DNA of 48,768 nt. It comes from Acidimicrobiia bacterium. Its GTDB lineage: Bacteria; Actinomycetota; Acidimicrobiia; Spongiisociales; JAHEDJ01. The translations under genes were made by a program, and so were the position numbers. Each line of letters opens with the position of its first letter. The first letter of the stretch is position 1. The DNA is taken from NCBI GenBank assembly GCA_029210695.1, contig JARGFH010000027.1:1-48768 (forward strand), given 5' to 3'. Of the stretch, positions 4,567-34,108 are shown piece by piece. The notes under the pieces are model-generated. The model did no database searches and was not told where the DNA came from. It saw only the letters and a list, made by a program, of their open reading frames with translations.

Positions 4567-4641
4567 GCCGATCTCCGGCTACTTTGGGCGGCGATGCCTT
4601 CCATCCGGCGAGCGGACCGACCTGCGTGGATTGACGATCAC

Positions 4642-5076
4642 ATGGTGCACCTCTCGTCGGATGAACTCATCGGCGCTCTTCGGGATCAGGGACTCCGAGT
4701 TACGGCCGCACGGCGAGCCATTTGTCGGGTGCTGGCCGAGAGTCACGAGGATCACCTGTCCGCCGTCGATATCCGGAGCCGAGCTGCGCGCCGGGCCGGA
4801 ATCGAGATCAATCAGTCGACGGTGTATCGCACACTCGACGTGTTCGAGGGCCTCGGCTGGCTGCACCACGTCCACCTTGGCCACGGACCCGGAATCATCC
4901 ATGTCACCGAGCGGACCGATCATCACCATCTCGTCTGTGAATCGTGCGGGCTGTCCGTTGACGTTCCACTGGCGGAACTCGATCAGGTATTCGCAGTCGT
5001 GACCGAACGGCACGGCTTTGCCCCCACCTCAGTGCATTTCGCGCTGGTGGGCACGTGCAAGGCCTGTGCCGACTAA
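4642..5076 (+). CDS. nur: Fur-family regulator, Nur (nickel uptake regulator)-like
   Basis: STVYRTL helix, HHHLVCESC and CKAC. HVHLGHG and the C-terminal HFA match the Ni-site histidines of Streptomyces Nur. It lies next to a Ni-ECF operon with a Nur box. Start at 4642 or 4594. Confidence 0.8.
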   Translation: MVHLSSDELIGALRDQGLRVTAARRAICRVLAESHEDHLSAVDIRSRAARRAGIEINQSTVYRTLDVFEGLGWLHHVHLGHGPGIIHVTERTDHHHLVCESCGLSVDVPLAELDQVFAVVTERHGFAPTSVHFALVGTCKACAD

Positions 5077-5102
5077 ACGTGAGCCTGTTCTAAACTACGG
5101 AA

Positions 5103-5735
5103 ATGCGCCTACTTGCCGCCCTCTTCGTGGTTCTTGCCCTTGTTCTGGCGGCCTGCGGCGGCGCGGCGACCACGACTACGATCGAGGCGGGCAATGCTCC
5201 CGCTCCCACCGATCCGGGTTCGACCGTCGCCGGCCCCGATGACTCCGTGACTCCCGACGATGGTGATGCTTCTACCCCGGCTGACACCGAAGCACCCCCT
5301 CCGATCGCTACCGACTTCGACGGCCCCGTTGCAGCAGATTTCACGATCGACCTCAATAAGACGGGAACCTTCACGCTGAGTGATGAGGCCCGTCCGGTGT
5401 ACCTCGTGTTCTGGGCTGAGTGGTGATCGACCTGTCGACGGGAGTTGCCCGTCGTTGATGCGATTGCCAAGGAATACGGGGACGACATCGCCTTTGTGGC
5501 CATTGCCTGGAAAGGTACCTACGAAGACACCGCGGCGCAGGCCGCCAATCTCATGCAGTCCGGCATGATGGATTGGGCGCTGGACGACGACGCTGAGATC
5601 TTCAGCCTGTACGGGGTGCCGTATCAGCCGGTCTCGTTCCTGATCACCGGTGACGACAAGGTTTTCGACACGTGGCCGGGAGTTCGAGACGAAGCGGCCA
5701 TCCGCCGGGCGCTGGATTCGCTGCTCGATCTCTGA
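5103..5735 (+). CDS. Thioredoxin-fold (TlpA/ResA-like) lipoprotein, predicted selenoprotein with a UxxC active site
   Basis: ORFs 5103-5426 and 5445-5735 are in one frame separated only by TGA 5424-5426, reading VYLVFWAEW-U-STC-RRELP. Lipobox LAAC, cis-Pro loop YGVPYQP and a SECIS-like hairpin right after the TGA. Confidence 0.88.
5426..5459 (+). promoter_or_regulatory. Putative bacterial SECIS element
   Basis: Perfect stem CGACGGG(5436-5442)/CCCGTCG(5448-5454) with loop AGTTG that starts after a 16-nt spacer from the UGA. Possible lower stem ATCGA/TTGAT. Confidence 0.75.
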
Positions 5736-5745
5736 GCGGCTTGAA

Positions 5746-5770
5746 GTTCTAGGTTTTGGGTTCTAGGTTC
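5746..5770. repeat. Heptamer (GGTTCTA-like) short tandem repeat
   Basis: GTTCTAGGTTTTGGGTTCTAGGTTC is 24/25 identical to the reverse complement of 31448-31472. Confidence 0.75.
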
Positions 5771-5804
5771 TACCGCGCCTGGCGGCTGTGGCTAGGTTCA
5801 CGAC

Positions 5805-6332
5805 ATGAATCCCTCTCAGCACACTTCTCTGGATCCACTTCCGGAAGAGCAATGGGATCCGCGACTCGATTCCGTTTTGGATCGGCTTGGGACCGTTCTC
5901 AACGTGCATCGGGTCATGGCCCGTCACCCTGATCTCATGGAAGCCTGGACCCCGCTCCGGCAGCACATCGCCACGGCAGGGTCGCTCGCCCCTCGCCATC
6001 GAGAGCTGGTGATCCTTAGGATTGCGCACCGTTTCGGCGTTGAGTATGAGTGGCACCATCACGTCGCCAGGGGGCGGGTAGTCGGCCTGAGTGACGAAGA
6101 GATCGAAGCCGTTCGACTCGGCCCGGGCGGCGAATGGAGCGACGACGACGCAACGCTCCTCGGCGCCGTGGACGAACTCCTCGACTCGCACTCTCTCTCT
6201 GATGCGAGTCGGACGTCCCTTGAAACGGAGTTCTCTGTGGAGCAGATACTCGACCTCATTGTCACGATCGGGATGTACGTCACGCTGGCGATGCTCATCA
6301 ACACGGCCGGGATCGAGATAGAGGACAACTAG
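5805..6332 (+). CDS. Carboxymuconolactone decarboxylase/AhpD-like family protein
   Basis: MARHPDL, L.PRHRELVILRIA, EYEWHHH, GLSDEEI and AVDEL motifs. Confidence 0.85.
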   Translation: MNPSQHTSLDPLPEEQWDPRLDSVLDRLGTVLNVHRVMARHPDLMEAWTPLRQHIATAGSLAPRHRELVILRIAHRFGVEYEWHHHVARGRVVGLSDEEIEAVRLGPGGEWSDDDATLLGAVDELLDSHSLSDASRTSLETEFSVEQILDLIVTIGMYVTLAMLINTAGIEIEDN

Positions 6333-6355
6333 CACTCGGGAGTCCCACTCAAACC

Positions 6356-6376
6356 TATACTGCAAGTGACTTGCAA
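6356..6376 (+). promoter_or_regulatory. Nur box overlapping a candidate -10 element of nikMN-Q-O
   Basis: cTGCAA-GTGAC-TTGCAA (6360-6376; perfect 7-1-7 palindrome TGCAAGT-G-ACTTGCA) fits the Streptomyces Nur consensus tTGCaa-N5-ttGCAA. TATACT lies at 6356-6361. Confidence 0.75.
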
Positions 6377-6391
6377 TAAGGTTGGTCCGAC

Positions 6392-7381
6392 ATGCACATT
6401 CCCGATGGGTTTATCAACGGTGTGACGTCGCTGGGGGCCGGTGTCGTTGCAGTGTCGGGACTGGGGGCCAGCCTTCGCCGGGCCGGGAAGGAGCTTCAGG
6501 ATCGTCAGATCCCCCTGGCCGGGCTCATTGCGGCCTTTGTTTTCGTTCTCCAGATGCTCAACTTCCCCGTCGTCGCCGGGATGAGCGGACACCTCCTTGG
6601 AGGTGCGCTGGCGGCCATTCTCATCGGTCCCTGGATGGGGATGGTCGTCGTGTCGGTGGTCGTGATCGTTCAGGCGTTGCTGTTTGCAGATGGAGGGATT
6701 TCGGCGCTCGGGCTCAACATCGTCAACATGGGGCTTCTGACGGTGCTGAGCGGCTGGCTGGCGTACCGGTTACTCATGGCGGTGCTGCCGAAGAAGGCAG
6801 GCTCAGTTCTTCTGGCGGGGTCGTTGGCGGCATGGTTCTCAGTGGTGGTCTCCTCTCTTGGATTCGTGGGGGAGTACGCAATTGGCGGCGCTGGGGGCGC
6901 TCCGTTGTCGACGGTGCTGGCGGCGATGTCGGGGACCCATTCGCTCATCGGGATTGGTGAGGGCTTGATCACCGCCGGCGTGCTCGGCTCGGTCCTGGCA
7001 GTCCGGCCCGATCTCGTGCACGGAGCGCGGCTCTTCGGTATCCGGCACGCCGAAAACGCCGAGCTGAGCCGGCGGGCGGTCGGCGCCTTCATCGCAGGGG
7101 GAGTAGCCGTGGCGATCCTTCTGGTGACCGTGGTTGCGCCACGGGCTTCCAGCGATCCAGATGGTCTGGAACGAGTGGCCATCGATCAGGGATTTGCGGA
7201 AACAGCCACAGAACAACCGCTCGGTGACACGCCGCTTTCGGAGTACAGGCTGGTCGGCGTCGAAGATGAGCAGCTCGGCACCGTCGTAGCCGGGCTCATC
7301 GGCCTTGGGGTCACGTTCGTTGCCGGTGTCGGTCTCGTTCTGCTGGCGAGGCGAAGCCGGGGTCGTGTCGATAGCCGATGA
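6392..7381 (+). CDS. nikMN: Ni/Co ECF transporter substrate component NikMN (CbiM family fused to a PDGLE domain)
   Basis: N-terminal MHIPDG metal-binding motif, QMLNFP, SGHLLGG, QALLFADGG and C-terminal PDGLE. Confidence 0.9.
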   Translation: MHIPDGFINGVTSLGAGVVAVSGLGASLRRAGKELQDRQIPLAGLIAAFVFVLQMLNFPVVAGMSGHLLGGALAAILIGPWMGMVVVSVVVIVQALLFADGGISALGLNIVNMGLLTVLSGWLAYRLLMAVLPKKAGSVLLAGSLAAWFSVVVSSLGFVGEYAIGGAGGAPLSTVLAAMSGTHSLIGIGEGLITAGVLGSVLAVRPDLVHGARLFGIRHAENAELSRRAVGAFIAGGVAVAILLVTVVAPRASSDPDGLERVAIDQGFAETATEQPLGDTPLSEYRLVGVEDEQLGTVVAGLIGLGVTFVAGVGLVLLARRSRGRVDSR

Positions 7382-8139
7382 GCGGGACGCACACCCACGC
7401 GCTCTTCGTTCATGGGCACAGTCACCTGCACCGACTTCCTGCCTCGACCAAACTCGGTGCACTCGGTCTCTTTGTGCTGGCCGTCGTCGTTACACCGCGG
7501 GAGGCGTTCTGGGCGTTCGGCGTTCATGCCGGGTTGATCCTGAGCGCCATGTGGTTGGCAGGGTTGAAACCTAGATTCGTGGCAAAACGCCTGGTCATAG
7601 AGGTCCCATTCGTGCTGTTTGCCGTGTTTCTCCCCTTTGTCGGCGGAGGCGACCAGTTGGACATCATGGGACTGTCGCTGTCCATCGAGGGCCTTTGGGC
7701 AGGCTGGAACATCGTTGCCAAGGGAACTCTCGGCCTGGCTGCATCCATCGTGTTGACCGCCACCACGACGGTCCCCGACCTCCTTTCCGGTCTCGAGCGG
7801 CTCCGGGTACCCCGGCTCATCACCTCGATCGCCGGGTTCATGGTGCGATACCTCGATGTCATCGCAGGGGAGATGCACCGGATGCGGCTGGCAATGCTGT
7901 CGCGCGGCCACGACCCGCGCTGGATCTGGCAAGCGAGGGCGTATGCGACCTCGGCCGGTGCCTTGTTCATTCGTTCGTATGAGCGAGGCGAGCGGGTCTA
8001 CTACGCGATGACCGCCCGTGGGTTCGCCGGTCAAATTCCTACTTTCGACACCGAGCGTGCCACCGGGACCGACTGGCTGGGTGCCCTCCTCCTGCCTGCC
8101 GTCGCCTGGACTGCAACCCTGGTGGCGTTGTTCGCATGA
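7378..8139 (+). CDS. nikQ: ECF transporter T component (CbiQ/NikQ)
   Basis: His-rich N-terminus, FMVRYL, LFIRSYERGERVYYAM.ARGF. Confidence 0.92.
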   Translation: MSGTHTHALFVHGHSHLHRLPASTKLGALGLFVLAVVVTPREAFWAFGVHAGLILSAMWLAGLKPRFVAKRLVIEVPFVLFAVFLPFVGGGDQLDIMGLSLSIEGLWAGWNIVAKGTLGLAASIVLTATTTVPDLLSGLERLRVPRLITSIAGFMVRYLDVIAGEMHRMRLAMLSRGHDPRWIWQARAYATSAGALFIRSYERGERVYYAMTARGFAGQIPTFDTERATGTDWLGALLLPAVAWTATLVALFA

Positions 8140-29255: not shown

Positions 29256-30761
29256 ATGCCCGCCCCCGCAGCCAATGTCACGCCCCCCGAAGGTGTCGAC
29301 TACGCCCGCAAATGGCAGGCGATGGTGGCGGTCGGCCTCGGCATCATCATGTCGACAATCGATGGTTCCATCGTCAACGTGGCTTTGCCGACGCTCGTCG
29401 ATGCATTCGACACGACCTTCCCGGTTGTGCAGTGGGTCGTTCTTGCCTACTCACTCACCCTTGCGTCGCTCTCGCTGATGGTCGGCCGCCTCGGCGACAT
29501 GATCGGCAAGAAACCGATCTACACCGCCGGCTTTGTCGTATTCACGTCCGGATCGGTGCTGGCCGGGCTCTCGCCGAGCATCGGTTGGCTCATCGGATTC
29601 CGGGTGCTCCAGGCGCTCGGCGCGGTGATGGTTCTGTCGCTGGGACTGGCAATCGTGGCGGAGGCGTTCCCTCCCTGGGAGCGAGGCCGGGCACTCGGCA
29701 TCGCCGGCAGCCTGGTTTCGATCGGTATCGTCGTCGGCCCCACCGTTGGTGGCCTGTTGATTCAGACGCTCGACTGGCGCTGGATCTTCTATGTGAATCT
29801 TCCGATCGGCGTGGTGGGGACGGTCGCAGCCTCGCGGTTCGTTCCGGCGGTTCGACCCAGGGGAGGCCAGACGTTCGACCACCCGGGGGCCGTGCTCCTC
29901 TTCTTCACCCTCCTCTGTATCTCCCTGGCGTTGACGGTCGGCCAGACCGTGGGGTTCGCCGATGGGCGGATACTGCTGCTGTTTGCGGGCGCAGTGATCG
30001 GCCTCATCTCGTTCGTGAAGTTCGAACTCAGGCGAGTCCAGCCGATGCTGGACCTGCGGTTGTTCCGCCAGCGCCTGCTATCGGTCAGCGTCGGCACCGG
30101 ATATCTGACCTTCGTGGCAGTTGCCGGATCATTCATCCTCTTTCCGTTCTACCTTCAGAATGTGCTCGGGTATGAACCGGGCGCCGTCGGTGTGATGCTG
30201 GCCGGACCATCGGTGGCAATCGCGCTCATCGCACCGATCAGCGGAAGCCTGTCGGATCGATTCGGCTCCAGGCCGATGACGGTGGTCGGGCTGGCCGTTC
30301 TCGTTGTCGGCTATGCGTCTCTGCGGACGCTGGGTGTCGACACGTCCGCCATCGGGTTTGTCCTCTTGACGGTGCCGATCGGTGTCGGCATGGGCATGTT
30401 CCAATCGCCCAACAACAGCGCCATCATGGGATCCGTGCCTCCCGAGCAATACGGGGTCGCTTCCGGCCTACTGTCGATCACTCGCATACTCGGCCAGGTG
30501 ACAGGTATCGCTCTCCTGGGCGCATTCTGGGCGATACGGGTGGCGGCCAATTCCGGAAGCGAGTACCGGGGTGCGGCCACCACGGCCGGGACAGGTGCAC
30601 AGGTGGCGGCCTTTCGTGATGTGATGCTGGTGGTCTCGGTGGCGATCGCCCTAGGCCTCGGGGCGGCGATCTGGGGATTGGCGGAAGAACGCCGTAGCCG
30701 CCAGGACGGCACCCACCAGAAGACCAGCCGAGTACCACCAGATCGGGCCGGAACCGAGTGA
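29256..30761 (+). CDS. DHA2 (EmrB/QacA-like) 14-TM MFS transporter
   Basis: IDGSIVNVALP, QWVV.AY, GRLGDMIGKK, ERGRALG, WRWIFYVNLPIG, FQSPNNSAIMG. Confidence 0.93.
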   Translation: MPAPAANVTPPEGVDYARKWQAMVAVGLGIIMSTIDGSIVNVALPTLVDAFDTTFPVVQWVVLAYSLTLASLSLMVGRLGDMIGKKPIYTAGFVVFTSGSVLAGLSPSIGWLIGFRVLQALGAVMVLSLGLAIVAEAFPPWERGRALGIAGSLVSIGIVVGPTVGGLLIQTLDWRWIFYVNLPIGVVGTVAASRFVPAVRPRGGQTFDHPGAVLLFFTLLCISLALTVGQTVGFADGRILLLFAGAVIGLISFVKFELRRVQPMLDLRLFRQRLLSVSVGTGYLTFVAVAGSFILFPFYLQNVLGYEPGAVGVMLAGPSVAIALIAPISGSLSDRFGSRPMTVVGLAVLVVGYASLRTLGVDTSAIGFVLLTVPIGVGMGMFQSPNNSAIMGSVPPEQYGVASGLLSITRILGQVTGIALLGAFWAIRVAANSGSEYRGAATTAGTGAQVAAFRDVMLVVSVAIALGLGAAIWGLAEERRSRQDGTHQKTSRVPPDRAGTE

Positions 30762-31352
30762 GGGTCGGATCGGCTCGGTGATCAGCCGGATCGCGCCGGC
30801 GGTGGCCAGAGCACCGGCCGCCACCACACCGGGACGGGTGAGCCGACGGAGCAGAAATAGCGCACCGAGAGCGGCGGCCGCGAAGACAAACGCCGCATAG
30901 AGCTCGGTTGGATGTCGGGTGAGGGAAGAGCCGGGCTCCGCAAACGCCCAGGGGACCTCCGAGCGAGTACCGAGACATGTCCCCCTGAACACGCACCCAC
31001 CGTGCCAACCGGCCAGCCCGGCGAGCACCGCCGGTGAGACGAGGTCCAGCGCGGCGGGCAGCGAGCGGCGGATTGCCCAGATGAGGAACAACAGCGCGCC
31101 GATGCTGGCGAAACCGGTGTCGACGCCACCCCTGATCAAGATGATGTCGGCCGGGTGAGTCAACGGATTCGTCCCGGTGAGGAGCATCGCGGCGATACGC
31201 CCGGCCACCAATCCAAAGACGGCCGCGCCCAGGAGGGTATCGAACCAATCGGACCGATCGTCCGGAAGGAGGCCAAGGCGCCGTTCGAGTCGCAGCATCA
31301 GCCATAGAGCGCCGACTGCCAGCAATGCCGCCCAGAGCAGGGTGAACTCCAT
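30651..31352 (-). CDS. Divergent Lgt (prolipoprotein diacylglyceryl transferase)-like membrane protein
   Basis: GLVAGRI, IRGG, LDLVSPA, GC...GTC.G..S.VPWA, RHPTELY; canonical catalytic motifs appear altered. Confidence 0.75.
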   Translation of the reverse strand: MEFTLLWAALLAVGALWLMLRLERRLGLLPDDRSDWFDTLLGAAVFGLVAGRIAAMLLTGTNPLTHPADIILIRGGVDTGFASIGALLFLIWAIRRSLPAALDLVSPAVLAGLAGWHGGCVFRGTCLGTRSEVPWAFAEPGSSLTRHPTELYAAFVFAAAALGALFLLRRLTRPGVVAAGALATAGAIRLITEPIRPSLGSGPIWWYSAGLLVGAVLAATAFFRQSPDRRPEA

Positions 31353-31488: not shown

Positions 31489-31962
31489 TCATCGGTTCAG
31501 GATCTCGTCTATCTGGAGTGAGAGGGTGCGCTCGTCGATCACGCCGTTGTGCCGGTAGACGAGCTCGCCTCCCGGTGCGAAGAAGTAGGTGATGGGCACT
31601 CCGACCCCGCCCAGCCTTGCCCGCACCGTTCCGGACCTATCGAAGTAGTTGTCGAATTCGAGGCCGTACTCGGAGATGAACTGGCGGGCGTTCTCTTGGG
31701 TGTCTTCAATATCAACACCGATGAAGCTCACCCGGTCACCGAACGCCTCATAGGCCGCGAAGAGCAGAGGGGCTTCAGATCGGCAGGGAATACACCAGGA
31801 AGCCCACACATTCAGCACGATCGGATCCCCGGATTCGAGGAGGCTGCTGAGGATCGCATCATCGATCGGGGGCAACTCAGGCACCTCGAGCGGAGCAGAC
31901 GTGGTTCCACAGGCGGTCAGGATCACGATGATGCTCAGCACTGTCGCCGCCATTCGTCTCAT
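31489..31962 (-). CDS. TlpA/ResA-like thiol-disulfide oxidoreductase lipoprotein (CxxC)
   Basis: Lipobox LTAC, VLNVWASWCIPCRSEAP, GVPITYF. Confidence 0.92.
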   Translation of the reverse strand: MRRMAATVLSIIVILTACGTTSAPLEVPELPPIDDAILSSLLESGDPIVLNVWASWCIPCRSEAPLLFAAYEAFGDRVSFIGVDIEDTQENARQFISEYGLEFDNYFDRSGTVRARLGGVGVPITYFFAPGGELVYRHNGVIDERTLSLQIDEILNR

Positions 31963-33419
31963 GGGTCCGCTCTCGGAAGTCGAATCGTGAAGGTCGATCC
32001 CCGGCCGGGGCCGGCTGAGCCGACAGTCAGCTCGCCGTCGTGTGAGCGTACGATCGTGCGCGAAATCGTGAGTCCGATTCCCGACCCGGCAGAGGTCTTC
32101 CCTTCGCCCTCAACGCGATGAAAGCGCTCGAAGATCTGCTGGAGTTCGTCCGGCGGGATGCCCTCTCCGGTGTCGTGAACGGACACCTCGCACGAAACCT
32201 CATCGCATGAGGCCGTCAACCACACGCGTCCTCCCTCCGGTGTATGGACGAGCGCGTTGCCCACGATGTTGGTGAAGGCCTGCGCCAGGCGATCGGCGTC
32301 TCCGTGGATCGGCAAGTCGGGCGCCGGCCCGATCGAAAGCTCGACTTCCTTGTCGAGGAACTGTGGCCGGAGCCGCTCGGCTGCCCGGGCGGCGACCTCG
32401 CCGAGGTCCGCATGCTGTAGGTCAAGGACCAGTGCCCCCTCCTCAGCGCGCGAGAGCAGTGCGAGGTCGGCGGTGAGTCGCTTCAGTCGGGTTGCCTCCT
32501 CGGCTACTTCGAGGTAGACCTCTGGAGTCGGTTCGAAGACGCCGTCGATCAAGCCCTCCATGTAACCCTGGATGGTGGTGAGCGGGGTGCGGAGCTCATG
32601 AGCGAGGTCCGACATGAGCCTGCTTCGCTGCTGCTCCGTCCTGGCGAGCGTGTCGCCGAGCGCGTTGACATCCGTGGCGAGTTTGGCGAGTTCCACCTCA
32701 CGGGGAACCGGTACCCGTTCGTCGTATCGACCGTCGGCAAGTCGCCGCGTGGCTGCCTGTACGTTGCGCAATGGTCGCAGAATGCGTCGTGACGTCAGCG
32801 CAGCCAGGGCGGTCGCCAGGACGAGGCTGGCGAGGAGAGCTATCCACAAGCCCTTGTTGAGGGCATCGTCGAAGGCGTTCTCGAGGTCTATGACGATCGT
32901 CTCAGTGCCGCCGACTCCTCTTGGCCCCTGCTGGGCCGCCTCGAATTCGGTCGGGTTCAGCGCTTCTGCTCCATGAGACCGAGTTCCTCCGTCGCCCGAT
33001 CGTGGGGCCGCATCGCTTCCGCTACCACCGGTACCACCGGTACCTCCTGTTCCACCTGTTCCACCTGCGCCTCCGGTTCCACCCGGCCCGCCCGGACCGC
33101 CCGGACCGCTCCCGTCGTTGCCGGGGCCCATTCCGGGGGTGGTGGCAGCGGTCGTCGGGGTCGCGCCGTCGCTGGTCGGTGAGGAGTCGCCGGTCTGACC
33201 CGCAGTCGGGTCCGTGGTCCCGCTCAAGACTGTTGAATCAGTGGTCTCCGGAGTGGCCTGCCTTCCGAATCCGTACTGCTGTCCGATCGTCGACACCTGC
33301 GCTTCGAACTCGGACGGCGCCAGGAGTTGCAGCGTCACCGTCATGACGGTCAACGTCACACCGATCACTCCTACATACGACAGGAGGAGGCGAACATCGA
33401 GGCGGCGGAGGACCTTCAT
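31959..33419 (-). CDS. BaeS-like sensor histidine kinase with a low-complexity extracytoplasmic region
   Basis: Two TM segments flanking a T/P/G-rich region, HAMP, AHELRTPL, NIVGNA, DTGEGI, GSGIGL; ATGA overlap with the response regulator. Confidence 0.93.
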   Translation of the reverse strand: MKVLRRLDVRLLLSYVGVIGVTLTVMTVTLQLLAPSEFEAQVSTIGQQYGFGRQATPETTDSTVLSGTTDPTAGQTGDSSPTSDGATPTTAATTPGMGPGNDGSGPGGPGGPGGTGGAGGTGGTGGTGGTGGSGSDAAPRSGDGGTRSHGAEALNPTEFEAAQQGPRGVGGTETIVIDLENAFDDALNKGLWIALLASLVLATALAALTSRRILRPLRNVQAATRRLADGRYDERVPVPREVELAKLATDVNALGDTLARTEQQRSRLMSDLAHELRTPLTTIQGYMEGLIDGVFEPTPEVYLEVAEEATRLKRLTADLALLSRAEEGALVLDLQHADLGEVAARAAERLRPQFLDKEVELSIGPAPDLPIHGDADRLAQAFTNIVGNALVHTPEGGRVWLTASCDEVSCEVSVHDTGEGIPPDELQQIFERFHRVEGEGKTSAGSGIGLTISRTIVRSHDGELTVGSAGPGRGSTFTIRLPRADP

Positions 33420-34108
33420 GACTCGAGCAAGAACTTGTAGCCGACACCGCGAACCGTCCCGATGATGGTTGGCTGAGTGGCATCGTCGCCGAGTGCCTTG
33501 CGAAGATTCCGAACGTGGACATCGACAACGCGTTCGTCTCCGAAGAAATCCCAACCCCAGACGCGTTCGAGGAGCTGGCGTCTGCTGAACACTCTCCCCG
33601 GTTCGGAGACGAGCGCAGCCAGAAGGTCGAATTCGAGCGCCGTGAGTTCCACCGGCGCTCCAGAACGGGTGACCTCACGGCGGTCTCCGTCCAGGGTGAG
33701 CCCATCAAAGCGGAAGGCGTTGGCTTCTGGTTTCGGAAGACCACGATCGCGTCTGAGCACGGCTTTGATGCGGGCGAGGAGTTCGCGCGGGCTAAACGGC
33801 TTGGAGAGGTAATCGTCGGCGCCGACGGAAAGACCGATCAGTTTGTCGACCTCCTCAGTCTTGGCCGTCAGCATCACAACGTAAACGTTTGAGAACGTTC
33901 GCAACTCGCGCAGGACCTCAATGCCATCGAGGCCCGGGAGCATGACATCCAGCACGATCAAATCAGGGTTATGGGACCGTGCTTTGTCTAGCGCCTCCCG
34001 GCCGCCGGCCGCCTCAATGACCGTGTAGCCGTCCTTTTCGAGATAGGCGCGAACGAGTTGACGGATCTTGCGTTCGTCGTCGACGACCAGGATCGTTCGA
34101 TCGCTCAC
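33416..34108 (-). CDS. OmpR/PhoB family response regulator
   Basis: ILVVDDE, LDVMLP, GADDYLSKPFSPREL, LTALEFDLL, TVRGVGYKF. Confidence 0.95.
   Translation of the reverse strand: MSDRTILVVDDERKIRQLVRAYLEKDGYTVIEAAGGREALDKARSHNPDLIVLDVMLPGLDGIEVLRELRTFSNVYVVMLTAKTEEVDKLIGLSVGADDYLSKPFSPRELLARIKAVLRRDRGLPKPEANAFRFDGLTLDGDRREVTRSGAPVELTALEFDLLAALVSEPGRVFSRRQLLERVWGWDFFGDERVVDVHVRNLRKALGDDATQPTIIGTVRGVGYKFLLES

Follow-up and report, generated by a model that had tools for sequence, protein, structure and literature searches.

Within a 48,768-nucleotide stretch of DNA from an Acidimicrobiia bacterium (GenBank assembly GCA_029210695.1, contig JARGFH010000027.1; hereafter the window), we analyzed a gene at positions 5103-5735 that appears to be interrupted by a stop codon. 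We find that these positions constitute one gene, which very probably encodes an exported thiol-disulfide oxidoreductase with a thioredoxin fold and a lipid anchor. The enzyme would be of the TlpA/ResA/Etrx type, with a catalytic selenocysteine (Sec, or U) in the motif U108-S-T-C111. The apparent internal stop almost certainly encodes this active-site residue, as judged from the conservation of the codon, from an adjacent RNA hairpin, and from the presence of selenocysteine machinery elsewhere in the genome. Standard gene callers cut the gene into two "hypothetical" pieces, and such fragments are present in public protein collections.

A conserved in-frame UGA and its hairpin

The gene occupies a single reading frame on the plus strand that comprises 210 codons, with one in-frame TGA at 5424-5426 ahead of the terminal TGA at 5733-5735. 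Read conventionally, this region yields an open reading frame (ORF) of 107 amino acids with an ATG start at 5103-5426, whose stop is the TGA at 5424-5426, and a second ORF of 96 amino acids in the same frame with a TTG start at 5445-5735. The initial annotation of the window had described two ORFs of one frame joined by this single TGA, and both the translation and the ORF map agree. It had also placed the TGA at the position of the first Cys of a redoxin motif, and FWAEW-U-STC-RRELP is indeed what the sequence contains; with the TGA read as U, the redox motif in full is YLVFWAEW-U-STC-RRELPVVD.

To assess conservation, the read-through protein was used to search 41 genomes (the genome itself and 40 relatives) that represent 12 families within a single Acidimicrobiia order. 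Thirty loci were retrieved, and the best match at every one of them contains exactly one internal stop, which is a TGA; this TGA lies at the same codon of the motif FWA[E/D]W-U-xx-C in 30/30 loci (30 genomes, 12 families) at identities down to 37%. A class-wide sample of 301 genomes, in which a match at E <= 1e-25 was taken as an orthologue, recovered orthologues in 60 genomes, all of them within seven families of that same order, and at this threshold none was found in the other families of the sample. One TGA is present in 58 of the 61 class-wide match rows and none in the remaining three, which corresponds to 57 Sec-form and 3 Cys-form genomes. Additional copies were observed in several genomes: G035 carries three tandem matches with one TGA each (C1:2363408-2366282, part of which is covered by locus L041), G017 has a second TGA-containing copy elsewhere (C15:43688-44188), and G016, G027, and G036, which belong to one genus, have more distant matches of 31-33% identity with one TGA.

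Searching 5.8 billion clustered proteins yielded 46 matches, of which 37 are full-length Cys forms (FWAEWCxxC), seven are N-terminal fragments that end exactly at ...FWAEW, and two are distant; where names are given, these are "thiol-disulfide isomerase/thioredoxin", "peroxiredoxin", or "TlpA family protein disulfide reductase". We reconstructed a quick maximum-likelihood tree from the 30 Sec forms, the 37 Cys forms, and three outgroups (139 columns; every row was given the same code in the Sec column). The two forms are intermingled in this tree, with nine changes by parsimony, at least three of which are forced by well-supported branches, and its unresolved base is occupied by Sec forms; these counts come from few columns and from a biased sample, as protein sets derived from gene callers cannot hold full-length Sec forms. 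The two forms also differ at the residue that follows the catalytic position, which is Pro in 34 of the 37 Cys forms (CPxC) versus 7 of the 30 Sec forms (UPxC), the Sec forms carrying S, G, A, T, H, L, or P there. This difference suggests either that the active site is tuned differently in the two forms or that the sequence near the UGA is constrained.

The UGA is followed by a hairpin with the sequence CGACGGG (5436-5442), AGUUG (5443-5447), and CCCGUCG (5448-5454), which forms a perfect 7-bp stem on the plus strand and overlaps the codons R-R-E-L-P-V-V. The loop is separated from the UGA by 16 nt (5427-5442) and the base of the stem by 9 nt, and a G (G5444) occupies loop position 2. The stem, the loop G, and the spacer had all been pointed out by the initial annotation and are all present in the sequence. 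Criteria of the bSECISearch type for the bacterial selenocysteine insertion sequence (SECIS) element call for a stem-loop just 3' of the UGA, a G (GU) in the apical loop, and a suitable distance between the two. The earlier suggestion that the hairpin fits the bacterial SECIS geometry is borne out by these criteria, by covariation, and by the loss of the hairpin in Cys forms.

Folding of 52 nt gave a minimum free energy of -17.8 kcal/mol (z = -2.13), with 8/200 shuffles as stable. As the hairpin taken alone is only mildly unusual, the evidence against chance is comparative, and consists of the TGA in 30/30 loci together with stem pairing above that of shuffles. We evaluated covariation in a gap-free alignment of 54 columns from the 30 loci, in which the 7-bp stem amounts to 210 cells. 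Stem pairing reached 93.3% of these cells, compared with a shuffled mean of 85.2% (0/500 shuffles as high), and sliding the 3' arm by 1-3 columns lowered it to 39-68%. Changes on both sides of a pair were found in 15 cells versus a shuffled mean of 3.3 (0/500 as high), and it is the three outer pairs that vary; the covariation score was 0.254 versus 0.109. Pair 20/36, for example, is GC in 20 sequences, AU in six, and CG in three, and RNAalifold independently gave the same helix. At one locus (L039), the peptide reads C-A-R-E-L-P-A-L, yet the stem is perfect (GCGCGGG/CCCGCGC), such that the compensation runs across an amino acid replacement.

Codon choice in the core of the hairpin follows the same pattern. 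Among the 30 orthologues the core codons are CGG in 29, GAG in 30, TTG in 25 with TTA in another four, and CCC in 30, while the background, taken from nine Pfam-supported genes of the window, has TTG at 10% of Leu codons and CCC at 25% of Pro codons. In the Cys-form orthologues of the same order (n = 3) only 4/7, 2/7, and 3/7 of the stem positions are paired, and all three use CTG or ATG and CCG at the Leu and Pro codons of the core. Together, these comparisons indicate that selection acts on the hairpin as RNA, and that its presence goes with that of the UGA. The initial annotation had suggested examining homologues for alternation between Cys and TGA at this codon, and had taken uniformly Cys close homologues with no conserved hairpin as the sign of a recent nonsense mutation or sequencing error; what we found is a TGA in 30/30 loci examined, Cys forms alongside them, and a hairpin that covaries.

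The genome, a 3.91-Mb assembly that is 97.85% complete, encodes the machinery that insertion of selenocysteine would require. A tRNA-Sec was detected at 73.3 bits (cut-off 47) and was called by ARAGORN as tRNA-SeC with anticodon tca (contig C66:20103-20193, minus strand, locus L001), selA was matched at 367.7 bits, and selB was recognized through the SelB wing_3 domain (73.6 bits) in an open frame of 626 amino acids. The selA and selB genes are adjacent on one strand in an operon-like arrangement (contig C160:1626-4537, minus strand, loci L009/L010), and the tRNA-Sec gene is on another contig. The selD gene (398.6 bits; contig C94:13659-14588, minus strand, locus L011) has one in-frame TGA in the motif GSG-U-ACKLG, which is followed by a 6-bp hairpin (AGCUCG/CGAGCU) with a loop that starts with GUU. 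These features indicate that SelD of this genome is itself a selenoprotein, and the organism would therefore possess at least one selenoprotein other than the redoxin. Selenium use by this actinobacterium had been anticipated on the strength of the redoxin gene, and the search for selA, selB, selC, and selD found all four. These bacteria appear to use selenium in at least SelD and the redoxin, and to place a selenoenzyme outside the cytoplasm.

Enzyme type, proposed mechanism, and alternatives

The predicted protein has three parts. A signal peptide with a lipobox, MRLLAALFVVLALVLAAC, is encoded at 5103-5156 (plus strand), where LAAC corresponds to residues 15-18 and Cys18 is the predicted lipidated residue; a low-complexity linker of about 55 residues (19-75) rich in Thr, Pro, Asp, and Ala follows at 5157-5327 in the translation; and a thioredoxin-fold domain of the TlpA/ResA/Etrx-like kind extends over residues of about 76-206 (5328-5720), as delimited by Pfam stretches 76-187 and 79-190 and by sequence matches to the Protein Data Bank (PDB). 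A regular expression for a lipobox-like motif, [hydrophobic][x][A/G/S]C, found such a motif upstream of the domain in 30/30 orthologues, whose linkers are similar in composition and variable in length. A gene for prolipoprotein diacylglyceryl transferase (Lgt; PF01790, 65.8 bits) is present within the window. The initial annotation envisaged one surface-anchored Sec-redoxin of 210 amino acids that gene callers would fragment, and the conserved lipobox and the database fragments that end at ...FWAEW are in line with that prediction.

Three Pfam families match the domain above their gathering scores, namely AhpC-TSA (PF00578, 35.2 bits against 26), Thioredoxin (PF00085, 33.0 against 23.5), and Redoxin (PF08534, 30.0 against 26.6). 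The best sequence matches in the PDB are 4hqs_A/4evm_A (58.4 bits for 4hqs_A, over residues 69-206), followed by DsbE 3gl3 and ResA 1st9, and further relatives there include DsbF (3ios) and MPT53 (DsbE; 1lu4) of M. tuberculosis. The UGA aligns with the first Cys of the 4hqs_A motif FWASWCSIC, and on the basis of this alignment and of orthologue conservation the residue would occupy the first, nucleophilic position of U-x-x-C. Across 67 Sec and Cys orthologues, W107, U/C108, and C111 are invariant, as are P98, F103, W104, A105, E114, and W158; Q175 is present in 65 and P176 in 66, the latter a presumed cis-Pro that aligns with S-Y-P of 4hqs_A. No NCBIfam model reaches its cut-off: the best is ResA NF002854 (47.1 bits of 170), followed by DsbE TIGR00385 (30.8 of 123.15) and TlpA NF047696 (27.4 of 230), and the selenoprotein models NF041057 (24.2 of 190) and NF041054 (20.8 of 300) score lower still. 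We therefore did not name the protein as ResA, DsbE, or TlpA proper, or assign it to an existing selenoprotein model.

These observations are consistent with the following mechanism. SelB carrying Sec-tRNA(Sec) would bind the hairpin 9 nt 3' of the UGA, such that selenocysteine is delivered in place of termination, and the mature protein would be exported and, through Cys18 and its long, flexible linker, anchored to the external face of the membrane. There, the selenolate may attack a disulfide, or a sulfenic or sulfoxide-derived intermediate, of a client protein, after which Cys111 would resolve the mixed selenenylsulfide. The U-C pair would then be reduced again by a membrane electron carrier of the CcdA/DsbD type; two DsbD_TM/CcdA-type genes score over the cut-off in the genome, and their products are plausible electron donors. 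The most likely role of the protein would be that of an extracytoplasmic reductant.

This interpretation must be made cautiously, and several observations weigh against it. The hairpin in this single sequence is only modestly more stable than its shuffles, and its conservation is partly confounded with that of the R-E-L-P peptide, as the three innermost G-C pairs never vary. An Rfam scan of positions 5000-5900 gave no match at E <= 1, a result that is uninformative for bacterial SECIS elements; we know of no bacterial SECIS model in Rfam. Because no NCBIfam equivalog reaches its cut-off, the predicted enzyme type is assigned only at the level of the TlpA/ResA-like superfamily. No CcdA gene adjoins the selenoprotein gene, and the donor and client proposed above are conjectural. 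Among the 30 loci and 13 further loci scanned, there is no partner gene that is conserved order-wide. Finally, selenium incorporation, the action as a reductase, and the identities of donor and client are all inferred from sequence, and the top Pfam match to AhpC-TSA is compatible with a peroxidase-like role.

One may postulate on the latter grounds that the protein is a real selenoprotein that acts as a Prx-like thiol peroxidase, detoxifying peroxides at the cell surface, rather than as a protein-disulfide reductase. AhpC-TSA is the best Pfam match at 35.2 bits, an AhpD-like CMD gene lies directly downstream in the genus of the window, and published selenoprotein lists include a "Prx-like thiol:disulfide oxidoreductase" (PF00578, UxxC; PMC13188914, PMC9312934). 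Against this, the motif W-x-x-W-[U/C]-x-x-C, the best NCBIfam match (ResA, 47.1 bits), and the PDB matches (Etrx-like 4hqs, DsbE, ResA) are those of the TlpA/ResA reductase type, and the CMD neighbor occurs in only 5/30 loci; we consider a peroxidase unlikely. Doubts of another kind concern the decoding of the UGA. It might be read through without SelB and Sec, for example by near-cognate insertion of Trp or Cys stimulated by the hairpin, and while a hairpin in this position might conceivably delay termination, nothing specific favors this scenario. The Sec machinery of the genome is complete, at least one further selenoprotein with an in-frame UGA (SelD) is encoded there, the redoxin UGA falls exactly at the redox position that is Cys in homologues, and the loop sequence G-U-U is common to this hairpin and the one that follows the selD UGA, all of which make read-through of this sort highly improbable.

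A true stop at the TGA would imply either two products (a 107-aa lipopeptide and a 96-aa fragment that starts at TTG 5445), a pseudogene, or a sequencing error. Standard gene callers do yield these fragments, and 7/46 database matches end at ...FWAEW, yet in 30/30 loci from 12 families, and class-wide in 57/60 genomes, the TGA is shared, the frame is intact, and the flanks are conserved. Neither a nonsense mutation nor a sequencing error would persist across so many loci and genomes, and both were rejected for this reason, as were two products on the conservation of the TGA and its flanks. A split would moreover sever the thioredoxin fold at its active site, and TTG 5445 is a Leu codon in the hairpin loop that is TTA or CTC in 5/30 orthologues, and hence not a conserved start. 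We regard a true stop as having almost no chance of being correct, and retain the interpretation of a single gene for an exported Sec-containing reductase.

Gene neighborhood

In this part of the window, a TrpD-like glycosyltransferase-3 gene is followed in turn by genes for a Fur-family regulator, the selenoprotein, a CMD/AhpD-like protein, CbiM-PDGLE, and CbiQ, with the row from the Fur gene onward (4594-8139) on one strand. The Fur-family metalloregulator (4594-5076, plus strand; PF01475, 80.7 bits) ends 26 nt upstream of the selenoprotein gene. Downstream are the CMD/AhpD-like gene (5805-6332, plus strand; PF02627, 46.4 bits) and then, at 6392-8139 on the plus strand, CbiM-PDGLE (6392-7381; PF01891, 190.9 bits, and PF13190, 57.3 bits) and CbiQ (7378-8139; PF02361, 123 bits), which are components of an ECF-type Co/Ni importer. 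A Fur homologue lies upstream in 12/30 loci and a CbiM homologue downstream in 12/30, and the five loci with a CMD gene downstream all belong to the genus of the window; these counts are lower bounds, given that several loci are cut by contig ends. Scanning of 117 ORFs in the 13 further loci, from other lineages, revealed unrelated neighbors, namely genes for MIP channels, AIG2-like and DUF4440 proteins, and PAF-AH-like hydrolases, as well as acyl-CoA dehydrogenases, a Trx-Lgt pair, and a TPR gene accompanied by a second Cys redoxin. The linkage to Fur and CbiMNQ is a lead at the level of this lineage only. The 69-nt spacer between the selenoprotein and CMD genes contains the repeat GTTCTAGGTT, present exactly at 5746-5755 and again at 5760-5769, and in part as CTAGGTTC at 5791-5798; a regulator of the CMD gene might use these repeats as its operator.

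The window also contains a Cys paralogue at 31489-31962, a lipoprotein-like redoxin with the motif WASWCIPC that reads LNVWASWCIPCRSEAPLL and is also given as LNVWASWCIPCRSEAP. The initial annotation had used it as the Cys homologue for comparison; the homologue and its motif WASW-C-IPC stand, with the addition that the gene is on the minus strand, which had been left unstated. Its identity to the Sec protein is only 28% (match row 31495-31845). The Lgt gene (30651-31352, minus strand) comes directly after this paralogue and a two-component system (31959-34108) precedes it, and at two other loci (L028 and L035) the same Trx-then-Lgt pair is convergent to the Sec gene.

A broader and decidedly speculative scenario, to which we would give little weight, joins these strands. 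A cell-surface selenoenzyme retained by nearly the whole order would make the upkeep of envelope redox state dependent on selenium, and in the lineage of the window the selenol/thiol pair might serve not classical disulfide reduction but metal handling for CbiMNQ, by capturing metal or by reducing the importer or its substrate; the ancestral state would be Sec, with repeated replacements of Sec by Cys and fixation of Pro after the Cys.

Comparison with known thioredoxins and selenoproteins

The closest relatives of known structure are Cys proteins. The entries 4hqs_A/4evm_A and 2yp6/4hqz, surface-exposed proteins that their depositors named "Thioredoxin family protein", share with the protein studied here the motif FWA[S/E]W-C-S-x-C, the cis-Pro region G-V-x-x-x-P, and a lipoprotein architecture, but they are Cys proteins of Firmicutes with low identity. 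We take 4hqs_A/4evm_A to be the Streptococcus pneumoniae lipoprotein Etrx1 and 2yp6/4hqz to be Etrx2. Etrx1 and Etrx2 receive electrons from CcdA and reduce extracellular MsrAB2. Likewise, ResA of Bacillus subtilis (1st9), DsbE/CcmG (3gl3), TlpA, DsbF, and MPT53 are extracytoplasmic thioredoxin-fold reductases that are tethered or secreted, as the protein studied here is predicted to be, and carry WCxxC at the corresponding position; all of these are Cys enzymes, however, and their NCBIfam equivalog cut-offs are not attained. No cytochrome c maturation genes were found beside the selenoprotein gene in the neighborhood scans.

Two NCBIfam models describe thioredoxin-like proteins with Sec in the redox motif, as is proposed here: NF041057 (Rcas_1661 family thioredoxin-like (seleno)lipoprotein) and NF041054 (ResA-like, WAxxUGC). 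The scores of the Acidimicrobiia protein lie far below the cut-offs of both, and its motif is WAEW-U-xx-C rather than WAxxUGC. In the literature on selenoproteins of Acidimicrobiia and Acidimicrobiales and on selenocysteine-containing TlpA, the subfamily was found under no name. A preprint on Actinomarina (10.64898/2026.04.03.716425) reports selABCD and about five selenoproteins per genome in a related order, and its text, supplements aside, does not contain the word "thioredoxin".

Selenoproteins with UxxC in a thioredoxin-fold or Prx-like protein have been listed since 2006 (PMC1794560), and again in 2008 (PMC2398784), 2022 (PMC9312934), and 2026 (PMC13188914). The analysis of Global Ocean Sampling (GOS) data reports 321 sequences of Trx-like 1 (COG0526, UxxC) and 225 of Prx-like 1 (PF00578, UxxC; PMC2398784), and among the entries of the 2026 review are a UGC-type TlpA family and models for seleno-lipoproteins (PMC13188914). 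The kinds listed include a "Thiol:disulfide interchange protein" (PF13098) and the "Prx-like thiol:disulfide oxidoreductase" (PF00578). The published UxxC reference sequences come mainly from Deltaproteobacteria and marine metagenomes, and they were matched to the protein described here by descriptors only (Pfam domain and UxxC).

The listed UxxC selenoproteins have in common with the present one a Thioredoxin or AhpC-TSA fold, Sec as the first residue of UxxC, homologues with Cys, and a SECIS element after the UGA. The subfamily described here differs in having a signature of its own, FWAEW-U-xx-C-RRELP, in its lipoprotein anchor and long linker, and in its restriction to one Acidimicrobiia order among the genomes searched. 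A dedicated model would mend the annotation in most genomes of this order, as 57 of the 60 orthologue-bearing genomes carry the TGA, and the natural pairs of Sec and Cys orthologues, with and without the hairpin, provide a comparative system for the gain and loss of a SECIS element within coding sequence. Known selenoprotein biology is unchanged by these results; the Acidimicrobiia protein is real but not surprising, and adds a new subfamily, order-wide in extent, to a kind of selenoprotein that is well known.

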